DNA from: Candidatus Kapaibacterium sp.
GTDB taxonomy: Bacteria > Bacteroidota > Ignavibacteria > Kapaibacteriales > UBA2268
Direction: 5' to 3'
Length of the DNA: 64,000 bases
Assembly: GCA_963664875.1 (NCBI GenBank)
Contig: OY761611.1
Span: 2,144,001-2,208,000, forward strand
Part shown: piece after piece, positions 4,378-39,734 of the stretch
How positions within the stretch are numbered: the stretch's first letter is position 1
How the letters are laid out: each line of letters begins with the position of its first letter
Program-made: the position numbers and the translations under genes
The notes under the pieces: model-generated
The model's database searches: none
Told to the model about the DNA's origin: nothing
The model's input: the letters and a program-made list of their open reading frames with translations, nothing else

Positions 4378-4451
4378 CAATTCCGTCCCCGACCACTGGA
4401 AGAAACTTATAAATCCTTATAGCTGATAAAGTTATAAGGATTTTTTGTTTG
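4378..4451 (+). mobile_element. att-like site: 3' end of tRNA-Phe (from the T-loop) plus downstream terminator
   Basis: 74 bp identical to the reverse complement of 39606-39679; lies next to the integrase genes. Confidence 0.85.
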
Positions 4452-4461
4452 GGGTTGGGGG

Positions 4462-4555
4462 GTGTCAGCTTAACACTATTGAAAATTTACAATATTAAGC
4501 CCACCGCCCCACCCACTCGAAAGGCAGTGTCAGCTTAACACTATTGAAAATTTAC
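4462..4555 (+). repeat. 29-bp direct repeat pair (GTGTCAGCTTAACACTATTGAAAATTTAC) separated by 36 nt
   Basis: Exact copies at 4462-4490 and 4527-4555. Confidence 0.85.
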
Positions 4556-5155
4556 TACATTGTAAATTTCTACAAATGCTTTACTCTGAGTTCTTAGAGT
4601 TTTGCTTTTATTAAACCTCAATTCCTTTTTACTTTGATAGACTCAATGTGTTTTTTCTTCCTCAGCGGTATTTGAATTCATTCTTGCAAAAAATTTACAT
4701 CACTCTTCCTGCCTTCCATTGAATTTAGGCAAATTAGAATCTCGCGGTACTTACTTCAGAACTATTTTAGAACTTTTTGATAGCTCTTAGTCGTCCTATC
4801 TACTCTATGTTTTCCCTGCCTTATTGCTTTAAAATTAAAGTGCTTCAACTAATACTCATCTGTAAAGTAAATGTTATTCCAAAATTTTGATTAGATATAC
4901 CATTTAATATTATTTTTGTATAAATAGGTGTCATAATATGTCACTAATAAAAGTCTATATACATATAAACGATAATAGATTCAGGGAATACAAAAAAAAG
5001 AAATCTCAAAGAAGTTAAAAAATAATTAGACAATTGGAAAAATATTATTATATTCATTGTATTGTATGTTTGTTATCCTACGGGAATGCTCTAATATACA
5101 ATATTATAAACAATATTCTAACAATAAAAAATATTCACAATGTTAAGGAGGATAC

Positions 5156-5812
5156 ATGAGGTTATATGTAAATTTTAGTGCAAATGACTCACCTATTCCA
5201 TTTGACTATCAGTACAAGCTAACCGGGTTGCTGCACAAATGGCTCGGTAAAAATGATATTCATGATGGCAAAAGCTTATATTCTTTCTCGTGGCTCAAGG
5301 GTGACTACTATCTGCAGCATGGTCTAAACTTTGAGCAGGGAGCGAAGTGGTTTATAAGTTTTCATGACAGTGAGCTTGGCAAAATTCTGATTGACGCAAT
5401 CCAAAAAGACCCAACCGCTATTTACGGGATGAGAGTCGAAGAGATTGTTATAAAAACTGATCCTGAATATACTGACAAGGCACACTTACCTGCTGCCTCA
5501 CCAATTTTAGTTCGTGACTATAGCAGCAATCCAAACGGGAACTATCTAACGCCTAAACACGAGGACACCGGCAAGCTACTTACCGACTCTATCAAGAACA
5601 AAATGAAGTTTGCGGGGTTAGACTACGACATAAAAATCAATTTTGACAAAACTTATCCAAGAGCCAAAACCAAACTAATCGACATCAAAGGCATAAAACA
5701 CAGAGCCAATATCTGCCCTGTGATAATGGAAGGCGACCCGGAAGCCATTCGTTTCGCCAGAAATGTAGGCATAGGTCACCTGACCGGTTGTGGTTTTGGA
5801 GCATTGGAATAA
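5156..5812 (+). CDS. cas6: CRISPR-associated endoribonuclease Cas6
   Basis: C-terminal glycine-rich loop GIGHLTGCGFG; YSFSWL motif; AGGAGG RBS. Confidence 0.92.
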   Translation: MRLYVNFSANDSPIPFDYQYKLTGLLHKWLGKNDIHDGKSLYSFSWLKGDYYLQHGLNFEQGAKWFISFHDSELGKILIDAIQKDPTAIYGMRVEEIVIKTDPEYTDKAHLPAASPILVRDYSSNPNGNYLTPKHEDTGKLLTDSIKNKMKFAGLDYDIKINFDKTYPRAKTKLIDIKGIKHRANICPVIMEGDPEAIRFARNVGIGHLTGCGFGALE

Positions 5813-5824
5813 AGGAGAGAAGAG

Positions 5825-6439
5825 ATGAAACTATACTTAGTTAAATATAAAGGCCCATTTGGATATATCAAACCTTGGACCGCTGTCAGAGACGATGAAA
5901 CTTTCAGCCAGCAATTTTTGACACCTTCCATTATAGAGGGTATGGAGAAAAAGCTTTTTCCGGAAATGCTCTCCCAAAAGGGAATTCAAAAGATTAAGAG
6001 ACATCGGTTGAGGTATAGAAGCATGTCAAAACAACAGGAAGTTACTCAACCCAAAGGTACTGAAATTAAAAGCAAACCAAAAGAAGGTAAAATTGAAGTC
6101 AAGAGAGATAGATCTATTATCAATCGCTTTGTACTCGTTGAACCAACTTTGTTTTTAGCATTTGATAACCAGGAAGATGCTGAAATAGCTTCAACACAAC
6201 ACATCTGCTTATGTAGAAATGAAGATGTGTTGCTTCCTACTCAGGAAATTATCGAAACAACTTCCGATGAATTCGATAACAATAATGGGAGTTTCAATGG
6301 TTTTGAACTAGTTTTTGGAGAGTCGGAAGATTCGTTTATTGTAGGTATGAATCGATATGATATGTCAAAAACCATGCACGGCAGTTTCAAAATAGTCGGT
6401 CAAAATCCTTTAATTTCTGAGTTTACTCATGAAGACTAA
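5825..6439 (+). CDS. cas5: CRISPR-associated protein Cas5
   Basis: N-terminal GPFGYIKPW...TPS..EG pattern, size and position in the cas operon. Confidence 0.75.
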   Translation: MKLYLVKYKGPFGYIKPWTAVRDDETFSQQFLTPSIIEGMEKKLFPEMLSQKGIQKIKRHRLRYRSMSKQQEVTQPKGTEIKSKPKEGKIEVKRDRSIINRFVLVEPTLFLAFDNQEDAEIASTQHICLCRNEDVLLPTQEIIETTSDEFDNNNGSFNGFELVFGESEDSFIVGMNRYDMSKTMHGSFKIVGQNPLISEFTHED

Positions 6440-37443: not shown

Positions 37444-38025
37444 ATGAAAGAGGTAGCATTAAAGGTTCAAAAAAGAGATACAGGCAAAAAAGAAGTAAAA
37501 CAAGTAAGAGCTGAGGGACTTATCCCGGGTATCTGCTATTCTAAATCAAACGAACCAGTTGCAATTGCTGCAAAGCCTTTGGATATGCGTTCTGTTGTAT
37601 TTACTCCTTATACTAAAAAAGTATGCTTGGAAATCGAAGGTGGTCAAAATTTGGAATGTGTATTGAAAGAAGTTACTTTCGATCCTATCACTGACGAAAT
37701 CAAACACTTTGATTTGCAGGTTTTGGAAGAAAATACTCCAATTACAGTTAGCGTTCCATTTGTTCTTGTAGGTCAGTCAAGCGGTGTTCGTGCCGGTGGT
37801 ATTATGCAACACGTTTTGCGTAAATGCCCGGTTACATGTATGCCTAAAGATCTTGTAAGTGCTGTCGAAGTTGACGTTAAAGCACTTGAAATCGGCAAAT
37901 CTATTCACATTAAAGATGTGAAAAAAGAGAACATCAAATACGGTGTACCTGATCATACTATTATTTGCTCAGTTGCTGCTTCAAGAGCTTCTCGTTCTGC
38001 TGCAGATGCTGCTCCTGGCAAATAA
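37444..38025 (+). CDS. rplY: 50S ribosomal protein L25/Ctc
   Basis: R.EGLIPGICY, DPITDEIKHFD and GVRAGG; follows prs. Confidence 0.93.
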   Translation: MKEVALKVQKRDTGKKEVKQVRAEGLIPGICYSKSNEPVAIAAKPLDMRSVVFTPYTKKVCLEIEGGQNLECVLKEVTFDPITDEIKHFDLQVLEENTPITVSVPFVLVGQSSGVRAGGIMQHVLRKCPVTCMPKDLVSAVEVDVKALEIGKSIHIKDVKKENIKYGVPDHTIICSVAASRASRSAADAAPGK

Positions 38026-38051
38026 TAAGTTATATATCTCTAGTTTTTATG

Positions 38052-38082
38052 CAAATAGCTGTCATCCAATGACAGCTATTTG
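38052..38082 (+). terminator. hairpin terminator after rplY
   Basis: CAAATAGCTGTCAT-cca-ATGACAGCTATTTG perfect stem between convergent genes. Confidence 0.75.
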
Positions 38083-38212
38083 TGTATATCTATGGTCTGT
38101 GTGAACCTTTTTATGGCTTGTTCTTCTTGCAATATAATAGTGCACATAGATCCGTAAAAAAAGGTACTAAATAATATTTAGCACCCTTAATTTGACGAAT
38201 TTTGCGACAGTA

Positions 38213-39379
38213 TTAGATCATCATTTTAAATATTTCTAAGACATCGTCTCTATCCAATTTTCTAAATTGACCTATCATACCAAATTTTGTAGCTTTGTCT
38301 GCCATTTCTTCTATTCTGCTATCATCGATGTCAAAATCTGATAGCTTTGTAGGCAATCCCATTGCTTTAAAGAAAGCACGCAACTTGCTAATACCTTCTT
38401 TTGCAGCAATGATTTTATCTTCGTTTGCTGGTACTCCCATAACATTAACTGCAAAATTGTAGTATTTCTCTACATTTTTCTCAGTCATAGTATATTCCAT
38501 CCAATAAGGAGTAATTAGAGCCAAGCCTGCACCGTGGGTTACATCATATATTGCACTGACTGCATGCTCAATCATGTGAACTGCCCAATCACCATATCTG
38601 CCGGTGGAGAGCAGTCCATTGAGAGCTAGAGTTCCGGTCCACATAAGGTTTGCTCTTGCTTCGTAGTTCTCAGGTTCTTTAATCGCAATTGGTCCATAAT
38701 GCATCGCAGTTTTTAGCATTGCTTCGCACATTCTGTCTTGAATATGAGTGCCGCCGATTGGAGAAAAGTATTGCTCTAAAATGTGACTCATTATATCTGC
38801 AGTTCCGGAAGCTGTTTGCCATTCATTCACTGTGTAGGTGTTTTCCGGGTCGAGTATTGAAAATTTTGGAAGTACTAATGGAGAGCCGGCTGGAAGCTTG
38901 TCTTGAGTTTCCCAATTAGTAACTACAGTGCCGCTGTTCATTTCCGAACCGGTAGCAGCCAAAGTCAGAATAGAAGCTACAGGGACTGCATCCATTGGAG
39001 TAGCTTTTCTTAAAAAGAAATCCCATACATCTCCATCATACTTTATACCCATAGAGATAGCTTTTGCTGCATCGATTACAGAGCCTCCGCCTACTGCTAG
39101 AATAAAGTCGCATTTATCTCTTTTGGCTACTTCTATTCCTTTATTGACAGACGAAAGACGTGGATTAGGTTCGATTCCACCAATCTCGGAGTGCTCTAAT
39201 CCTGCAGATCGAAGAGAGCTTGTAACCTTTTCAAACATACCGTTTATTTTAATGCGTTCGCTACCATAAACAATCAGTACTTTAGTTGCACCATGTTTTT
39301 TTGCAGCGTCGCCTACATGATCCATTTGTCCTTTGCCAAAAAGAATTTCTGTTGGTTGTGTAAAATTAAAGTTCAGCAT
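38213..39379 (-). CDS. iron-containing alcohol dehydrogenase (NADH-dependent butanol dehydrogenase-like)
   Basis: IEPNP, AVGGGSVIDAAK, TLAATGSEMN and H..EH..SA.YDVTHGAGL. Confidence 0.92.
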   Translation of the reverse strand: MLNFNFTQPTEILFGKGQMDHVGDAAKKHGATKVLIVYGSERIKINGMFEKVTSSLRSAGLEHSEIGGIEPNPRLSSVNKGIEVAKRDKCDFILAVGGGSVIDAAKAISMGIKYDGDVWDFFLRKATPMDAVPVASILTLAATGSEMNSGTVVTNWETQDKLPAGSPLVLPKFSILDPENTYTVNEWQTASGTADIMSHILEQYFSPIGGTHIQDRMCEAMLKTAMHYGPIAIKEPENYEARANLMWTGTLALNGLLSTGRYGDWAVHMIEHAVSAIYDVTHGAGLALITPYWMEYTMTEKNVEKYYNFAVNVMGVPANEDKIIAAKEGISKLRAFFKAMGLPTKLSDFDIDDSRIEEMADKATKFGMIGQFRKLDRDDVLEIFKMMI

Positions 39380-39661
39380 AAGAACAATCTCCTATATTTA
39401 TAATATCAATTATCCAAAGCTTAATACGAAAGAAAGGGCTAAGTAGTTCAAAATATTAATGGCATGCAGTTGCGTGATAGCGAAACGTGATAGGGGTCAT
39501 GTGCTGATACATGGATTCTAAAGTATATACAAGGGACAATAATGAGCCCCAGTATATCTATAAGATTTATGGAGGTAGCTAAAAGTAACACAGCCCCCCA
39601 ACCCACAAACAAAAAATCCTTATAACTTTATCAGCTATAAGGATTTATAAGTTTCTTCCAG

Positions 39662-39734
39662 TGGTCGGGGACGGAATTGAACCGCCGACACGAGGATTTT
39701 CAGTCCTCTGCTCTACCAACTGAGCTACCCGACC
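39662..39734 (-). tRNA. tRNA-Phe(GAA)
   Basis: Reverse complement GGTCGGGTAGCTCAGTTGGTAGAGCAGAGGACTGAAAATCCTCGTGTCGGCGGTTCAATTCCGTCCCCGACCA folds as a cloverleaf. Confidence 0.97.

Follow-up and report, generated by a model that had tools for sequence, protein, structure and literature searches.

Stacked integrase islands and two facing tRNA-Phe genes as the very probable source of an inverted repeat around a CRISPR-Cas locus in Candidatus Kapaibacterium sp.

Can the clustered regularly interspaced short palindromic repeats (CRISPR)-Cas locus of Candidatus Kapaibacterium sp. be turned around on the chromosome by the inverted repeat that encloses it? The question is raised by a stretch of 64,000 nucleotides, here called the window, which corresponds to positions 2144001-2208000 of the genome (contig OY761611.1, assembly GCA_963664875.1). 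The genome is a single contig of 3.83 Mb and is 100% complete. Coordinates are those of the window unless they are given as genome positions. Positions 4378-4451 on the plus strand are the exact reverse complement of 39606-39679, with 74 of 74 bases in agreement and the adjoining bases differing. A single T indel follows the 74-mer and 11 further bases then agree. In a repeat search of the window, the extended arms, 4378-4462 and 39595-39679, were 85 nt long and 96% identical. The stretch between the arms is 35,154 bp. This is the sole long inverted pair of the window, the two others being 30-38 nt in length at 74-87% identity. About 6e-36 exact inverted pairs of 74 nt are expected by chance in 64 kb, and a chance origin is excluded. 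The initial annotation of this DNA had described the repeat and its extension after one indel, had placed cas6-cas2, the array, and the housekeeping genes prs, rplY, and tRNA-Gln between the arms, and had taken the copy at 4378 to be the attachment (att) site of an integrase element. All of this holds, and two tyrosine integrase genes lie directly left of 4378. It had also suggested that the two inverted copies may bound a segment with CRISPR-Cas that an integrase can invert. This suggestion found no support, as the left arm has direct-repeat partners upstream and the right arm is a paralogous tRNA-Phe gene. The inverted repeat is very probably an incidental by-product of the paralogy of two tRNA-Phe genes, here called PheL and PheR, together with islands that are stacked in PheL.

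The content of the repeat can be read from its sequence. It holds the last 19 nt of a tRNA-Phe gene, from the T-loop to the 3' end, and 55 nt from downstream of the gene. The downstream part contains a hairpin with a 14-bp stem and, after it, a T run (-18.8 kcal/mol, z -5.75), and none of 200 shuffles was as stable. A terminator scan also called the hairpin at 39646-39614. The right arm belongs to the PheR unit on the minus strand (39595-39792), which comprises a promoter-side leader, an intact tRNA-Phe(GAA) gene found by ARAGORN at 39661-39734, and the terminator. The left arm on the plus strand (4378-4462) comprises the last 19 nt of the tRNA-Phe gene, the terminator hairpin, and 11 nt beyond. 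It is the attR of the stacked islands.

The whole genome was then explored for other copies. The 74-mer is present exactly three times, at genome positions 2097046 (+), 2148378 (+, window 4378), and 2183606 (-, window 39606). Two intact tRNA-Phe genes were found by ARAGORN in the whole genome, PheL (2096991-2097064, +) and PheR (2183661-2183734, -). PheL is located outside the window, 51.3 kb left of the copy at 4378 and in direct orientation to it. A 15-mer from the 3' end of the tRNA has exactly four genomic copies at one mismatch or fewer, at 2097050 (+), 2133276 (+), 2148382 (+), and 2183661 (-). The internal 15-nt copy at 2133276 adjoins a third integrase gene, int3. The three direct copies on the plus strand flank two stretches of 36,211 and 15,087 bp. 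The first is island 1 (36.2 kb), which, like PheL, is left of the window. The second is island 2 (15.1 kb, genome 2133291-2148377), the right end of which occupies window positions 1-4377. A second tRNA-Phe gene split by an element had been listed as an alternative in the initial annotation, and this arrangement is seen in the genome as PheL with its stacked islands. A direct-orientation tRNA-Phe or attL upstream was one of two observations that it had named as speaking jointly against an invertible segment, the other being a single orientation in deep long reads. The first of these was found, as PheL and as the 15-nt copy beside int3.

PheL and PheR align over 195 bp at 97.4%, and the match extends from about 55 bp upstream of the tRNA to past the terminator. 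They are two copies of one promoter-tRNA-terminator unit and, as such, paralogues. The proposed history would begin with these two tRNA-Phe(GAA) genes pointing towards each other, each of them part of a unit about 195 bp long. The 35 kb with CRISPR-Cas, prs, rplY, and tRNA-Gln would have been chromosomal DNA between both genes before any island arrived. In that state, an inverted tRNA pair of about 200 bp would have enclosed the same 35 kb, and the cas operon would have been about 700 bp behind PheL and its terminator. Islands with tyrosine integrases would then have entered the 3' end of PheL one after another. Each insertion would have rebuilt the tRNA at the left end and moved the displaced tRNA tail rightward. 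The outcome would be three direct tail copies (PheL, the internal copy beside int3, and window 4378) that bracket islands 1 and 2. The attR at 4378-4462 would carry the original tail and terminator of PheL, and its inverted match to PheR would follow only from the near identity and the facing orientation of these two paralogues. The copies and their orientation are read directly from the genome, while the order of the insertions is what we infer. A special regulatory effect of a flip, which had been proposed along with the invertible segment, is not supported either. The cas operon would already have been placed behind PheL and its terminator before the islands, and a flip would merely recreate the same arrangement behind PheR.

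The islands have the design of tRNA-targeting islands, in which one end has an intact tRNA gene, the other end repeats the 3' part of that gene in direct orientation, and an integrase gene is beside an att end. Three tyrosine integrases are encoded on the minus strand: Int1 (413 aa, 2946-4187), Int2 (443 aa, 1542-2873), and Int3 (genome 2131875-2133107). Each possesses the Pfam domains Arm-DNA-bind_5, Phage_int_SAM_5, and Phage_integrase, an architecture that may resemble that of the element integrases of Bacteroidota (IntDOT and NBU type). The start codon of int1 is 190 bp from the att copy at 4378. The internal 15-nt copy flanks int3 on the right at about 170 bp from its start, which is the same relative place as in the attR of a congener (G001). 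Int2 and Int1 are 34% identical. In an alignment of the integrases, the R, K, H-x-x-R, H, and Y columns of the catalytic set are invariant in Int1, Int2, and Int3, and these enzymes may still be active. The guanine-plus-cytosine (GC) content of island 1 is 32.6% and that of island 2 is 32.3%, compared with 36.2% for the genome. The 35-kb segment between the arms has a GC content of 36.4% and the cas operon of 36.6%. Accessory cargo is also present and is described below.

The same design was found in the congener G001. An intact tRNA-Phe gene (L012 5038-5111, ARAGORN) precedes 759 bp there that match the left end of island 1 at 88.6% identity. About 35 kb further, in direct orientation, there is a partial tRNA tail with its terminator, and a gene for a 410-aa integrase starts about 170 bp from this tail. 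This integrase shares 94% identity with Int3. The chromosomes of the two species share only 74-80% identity, and therefore the island family, for which tRNA-Phe is the target and direct repeats the outcome, would have moved between species. These identities point to a recent horizontal spread of the island type. A total of 16 integrase-family loci from species-representative genomes were inspected, all in Bacteroidota-like genomes. A tRNA-Phe fragment is beside the integrase in one of them (G001), other tRNA genes (Gln, Ser/Pro, Arg) in three, and no tRNA gene or fragment in 12. The 15 relatives other than G001 have 23-33% identity with the query and are too distant to inform target preference.

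The right arm has a different setting. PheR and its flank on the acyltransferase side form one continuous alignment in four of four genomes of the genus (query 7097/7112 to 8809/8817, 72-74% identity), and for this reason PheR is considered an inherited gene in a conserved setting. A tblastn search with Int1, Int2, and Int3 over window 4452-39600 gave no match below E 0.1. PheR is regarded as unoccupied because this region has no integrase remnant, and it could possibly be used as an empty target site. The 35-kb segment was also considered as an old integrative element itself. This was rejected, except for a scrap at 4463-4737, as there is no integrase match below E 0.1 and its GC content is that of the genome. 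Each of the four congeners has, among the matches listed, at least three that cover the full tRNA-Phe span with conserved flanks. Of all these tRNAs, one was checked by ARAGORN.

Some of these features are also what a live inversion would have. Int1 or Int2, or RecA acting on 74-85 bp of identity, would flip the 35 kb, and both orientations would coexist in culture. Inverted repeats do bound the segment (85 nt at 96%, 74 nt exact), the 74-bp identity is perfect with an integrase gene 190 bp from one arm, and all catalytic residues are kept. The pair is not a dedicated one, as its left arm belongs to a set of three direct copies of the tRNA tail by which the islands are bounded, and its right arm is an intact tRNA gene that is kept in place in four of four congeners. 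The direct-repeat partners already account for the left arm. Arm-binding integrases of the lambda type normally recombine attP and attB, or attL and attR, and an attR and a bare attB are not their usual partners. One contig from a public run (X10, described below) suggests that the island ends still recombine. For the archaeal tyrosine integrase Int-pTN3, inversion of chromosome segments has been reported with identical stretches of only 104 bp (PMC8371274). A live inversion is very unlikely. It is also very unlikely that PheR and the attR are a working inverted pair on which the integrases or RecA flip the block of CRISPR-Cas, prs, rplY, and tRNA-Gln. If they were, cultures would be mixtures of two chromosome isomers, in which the cas operon and the 273-repeat array have opposite directions relative to replication.

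The direction of replication has some bearing on this question. The minimum of the cumulative GC skew is at genome position 2096559, which is 430 bp before PheL and at the left edge of the islands. The gene dnaA (1874495) is 222 kb left of this minimum, and the skew maximum is at 474669. These extremes would give unequal replichores of about 1.6 and 2.2 Mb. The genes rplY, prs, tRNA-Gln, and the cas operon are all on the plus strand and are directed away from dnaA and from the skew minimum, which are both at the left. A flip would set them against replication, and the gene direction speaks weakly for the 35-kb segment being fixed in its orientation.

A single flip in the past between a copy of the tRNA-Phe tail and PheR is another way in which the present order could have been set. 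For example, the older element of which a decayed scrap, apparently from its left end, is left at 4463-4737 may once have been inserted in PheR. Positions 4582-4716 align over 137 columns, at 76% identity, with the 3' part of an 89-aa zinc-ribbon open reading frame (ORF) just inside the left end of island 1. This is the sole DNA similarity of the 35-kb segment to the islands. By this similarity, 4582-4716 appears to be a remnant of a still older insertion, located beyond the attR, and therefore the PheL site would have been used at least three times. The scrap would fit an insertion at either tRNA-Phe gene, and the gene order around the tRNA-Phe copies varies among all five species of the genus, both of which would be compatible with a past flip. 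One more event is needed than in a history with no flip, and the two histories are indistinguishable by sequence, with the 11 nt beyond the core being equal at both arms. A past flip is very unlikely. Directly after the attR there are also two direct repeats of 30 nt, 4463-4492 and 4528-4557, with starts 65 bp apart. The ends of these repeats are loosely like the 3' end of the CRISPR repeat, and no further genomic copy was found at five mismatches or fewer.

Public sequencing runs were explored for the orientation of the segment. Eleven runs hold this DNA, all as Logan contigs at k=31, and four of them (X6, X7, X8, and X10) were compared with window 1-13000. Runs X1-X5 hold only 0.05-0.08 of the sampled words, and no conclusion was drawn from them. 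An inversion across a 74-bp identity makes no new 31-mer, so contigs at k=31 are uninformative on orientation. The contig pieces listed at the core for X6, X7, and X8 end inside the 74-bp repeat and carry no information on how the flanks are joined. A scan of metagenome contigs for exact matches to the 74-mer gave none. An assembly join, in which the assembler linked the arms to the wrong flanks, is neither confirmed nor contradicted by these three samples. It is extremely unlikely, given that the genome is one complete contig, that an 85-bp repeat would be trivial for the read lengths that close a genome, and that the series of attL, internal copy, and attR is coherent. The contig depths agree with three copies as well. 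In X8, the unitig of the 74-nt core has a depth of 47, with entries of 18.9 (island end) and 33 (5' side of the tRNA) and exits of 14.8, 19.7, and 8.3. These depths fit three copies because three copies with two tRNA-linked entries predict such values.

A 975-nt contig from X10 (record 3), the only one seen to pass through the core in these four runs, runs from window 3536, inside int1, to 4460 and then continues with 50 letters that are unlike the window. It bears two differences that mark the flank of an island left end (attL type). Its conceivable sources are an excised circle (attP), a tandem junction, and a strain in which the islands are ordered differently. The contig bears on excision and not on inversion. 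Contigs of the attL type (window 4423-4619) are also present in X7 and X8. In these runs, the depth of the 13.3-kb contig that leads from the core into island 1 at its left end is below half of that seen for the 16.7-kb contig of the island 2 right end, 8.3 compared with 18.9 in X8 and 3.9 compared with 11.9 in X7. The GC contents of both regions are similar.

Several points weigh against the history of PheL, PheR, and stacked islands that is preferred here. The orientation of the 35 kb rests on a one-contig assembly alone, as the public contigs break within the 74-bp repeat. An identity of 74-85 bp suffices for occasional RecA-dependent recombination, and the X10 contig hints that the att sites may still recombine. 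A past flip between the copy at 4378 and PheR would leave an identical sequence. An empty PheL site beside the cas operon was not found in any strain or relative, the latter being the four congeners. Gene order in relatives had been put forward in the initial annotation as a check. The linkage of PheR and the acyltransferase gene is indeed kept in four of four congeners, but these genomes are too rearranged to reveal the ancestral order. The blocks of permease/DUF5020, DUF389-prs-rplY, the iron-containing alcohol dehydrogenase (Fe-ADH), tRNA-Phe-acyltransferase, fmt, and HydF are tens to hundreds of kb apart in the congeners and in varied order, and the gene order around the tRNA-Phe copies differs as noted above. 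Even so, the whole-genome check fully explains the pattern at this locus. It gives a caution for similar cases. When a partial tRNA copy is found inverted to an intact tRNA gene, the whole genome should first be checked for a direct-repeat partner and for paralogous tRNA genes. If inversion were true, a CRISPR-Cas locus would be switching orientation as a whole, which would be rare, and there is no indication of that here.

The cargo of the islands can indicate what they bring to the bacterium. At its left end, island 1 possesses the 89-aa zinc-ribbon ORF followed by a gene for a 95-aa HTH_17 protein (Pfam E 1.3e-6, 29.0 bits with a cut-off of 27; no NCBIfam match). This small protein is possibly an excisionase and is a candidate directionality factor. 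Genes for hsdM, Abi_2, hsdS, an M78 peptidase/HTH protein, and hsdR then follow, which include a type I restriction-modification system. Further along are several large ORFs without a family, an insertion sequence (IS), and a pair of RF-1-domain and RtcB genes. Island 2 encodes a REase-ARP nuclease, a T5orf172 protein, a helicase, a PDC-S21/DUF4917 candidate, a DUF2513 protein, and an MmeI-like type IIG enzyme (PADLOC E 1.8e-302). Pfam was run on 31 ORFs, which are part of the island ORFs. Three of these are the integrases and eight have no family. Among the 31, there was no match to conjugation families (relaxase, coupling protein, type IV secretion system) or to phage-structural families.

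Some of the island 1 genes deserve a closer look. Directly before int3, on the minus strand at genome positions 2128903-2131306, an RF-1-domain protein, a 216-aa ORF without a family, and an RtcB ligase are encoded in a row. This row presumably resembles a repair pair of the PrfH/RtcB type carried as cargo. At genome positions 2121950-2126761 there is one open frame of about 1600 aa, and no Pfam family was found in the 1350 aa of it that were scanned. Three other ORFs, 795, 612, and 567 aa in length, likewise lack a family. These are large unassigned cargo genes in a defence island.

The type I cas operon is located beyond the scrap, on the plus strand (5156-12902). It contains cas6, a 204-aa ORF, cas3 (HD and helicase), a 458-aa ORF, a cas7-like ORF, cas4, cas1, and cas2. 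These genes were named from Pfam and NCBIfam, with the exception of cas2, which was named by its position and size and not by a family match. The CRISPR arrays follow on the plus strand (13125-32348) and are very large, with 273 repeats in two blocks (241 and 32), which are split by an IS at 29143-30238 that has DDE_Tnp_1_assoc and DDE_Tnp_1 ORFs. There are 271 spacers of 34-38 nt, and five spacers are present twice. None of the 271 matches the tRNA-Phe islands. The base after the 29-nt core of the repeat changes blockwise along the array (T 135 times, A 102, G 9, T 24, G 1, and T 1), as if arrays of different history had been joined. The spacers at window 19632 and 25571 match the genome itself, with 35 of 35 and 34 of 36 aligned bases. 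Their targets, at genome positions 1394162-1394262, are separated by about 100 bp, and a further integrase paralogue (1345743-1346816) is encoded about 48 kb away. These two spacers are likely directed at a mobile element of the organism itself. Only one of the four congeners (G004) has a homologue of the cas operon. It is in an unrelated place without a tRNA gene, and no integrase was found among the eight flanking ORFs that were scanned.

The remainder of the 35 kb holds chromosomal genes (32575-39379). These encode a permease (-), a DUF5020 protein (-), a DUF389 protein (+), tRNA-Gln (36355-36428, +), prs (+), rplY (+), and Fe-ADH (-). The block of DUF389, tRNA-Gln, prs, and rplY is colinear in four of four congeners. 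Beyond PheR, five tandem tRNA-Thr(TGT) genes with a period of 115 bp are present at 42489-43025 and are 96% alike. A protein of 1131 aa that combines a CheB methylesterase, a CheR methyltransferase, and several PAS domains is encoded at 43336-46731. The locus is a tidy defence hot spot. Islands with restriction-modification, Abi, and candidate defence genes adjoin a native type I CRISPR-Cas system of 273 repeats, and two tRNA-Phe genes that face each other enclose the whole.

It is textbook knowledge that islands integrate at the 3' end of phe-tRNA genes and form direct repeats there, and the stacking of elements at one att site is known as accretion. Tandem accretion at one att site is found in the arrays of cis-mobilizable elements (CIMEs) along with integrative and conjugative elements (ICEs) of Streptococcus thermophilus. 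It is also reported for tandems of phages and ICEs (PMC13651849). Like these arrays, the locus has three direct cores around two unrelated elements, each with its own integrase gene at the right end, and a decayed scrap of an older element beyond the last core. Unlike them, it is found in another lineage with another integrase family, and its internal core is about 15 nt in length compared with 74-85 nt for the outer ones.

ICEMlSymR7A is a well-described element with the same type of target. Its integrase, IntS, inserts it at a phe-tRNA gene with a direct repeat of 17 bp (PMC5882170). The islands share with it the 3' end of tRNA-Phe as the target, a tRNA rebuilt at one end with its tail in a direct repeat at the other, an integrase gene by the att end, a small HTH protein as candidate directionality factor, and foreign GC. 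They differ in that the attL/attR repeat is 83 bp here and includes the tRNA terminator, compared with 17 bp. Their cargo is anti-phage defence, no conjugation family was found among the 31 island ORFs scanned, and their mobility is putative, being judged from sequence.

The same source describes the tripartite ICEs (ICE3) of Mesorhizobium, in which three integrases recombine dispersed att sites and the form of which may stem from two chromosomal inversions (PMC5882170). With three integrases and a distant inverted att-like site, the locus has a likeness to ICE3, which is the nearest known case of a chromosomal rearrangement through integrase sites. The locus differs in that its islands are contiguous and a single core, the tRNA-Phe tail, is common to all copies. 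At the inverted copy there is an intact tRNA gene without adjoining element DNA, as judged by the tblastn search with the three integrases over window 4452-39600. Conjugation genes and separate, dispersed att pairs are the marks of ICE3, and here the 31 ORFs scanned had no conjugation family and one core is shared.

Int-pTN3 of Thermococcus nautili is a tyrosine integrase that is reported also to catalyse inversions of the homologous type between identical segments of at least 104 bp (PMC8371274). It is a precedent for an integrase that can turn around parts of a chromosome enclosed by inverted identical sequences of roughly this length. The differences are that Int-pTN3 is archaeal and from another integrase family, and that the identity here is 74-85 bp, which is below the reported minimum. 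An activity like that of Int-pTN3 is not known for integrases of the Arm-DNA-bind_5 type, for which no search was made. Neither ICE3 nor Int-pTN3 is a fitting model for this locus. Compared with these systems, the locus adds another instance of a feature type that is already known, the tRNA-targeting tyrosine-integrase island.

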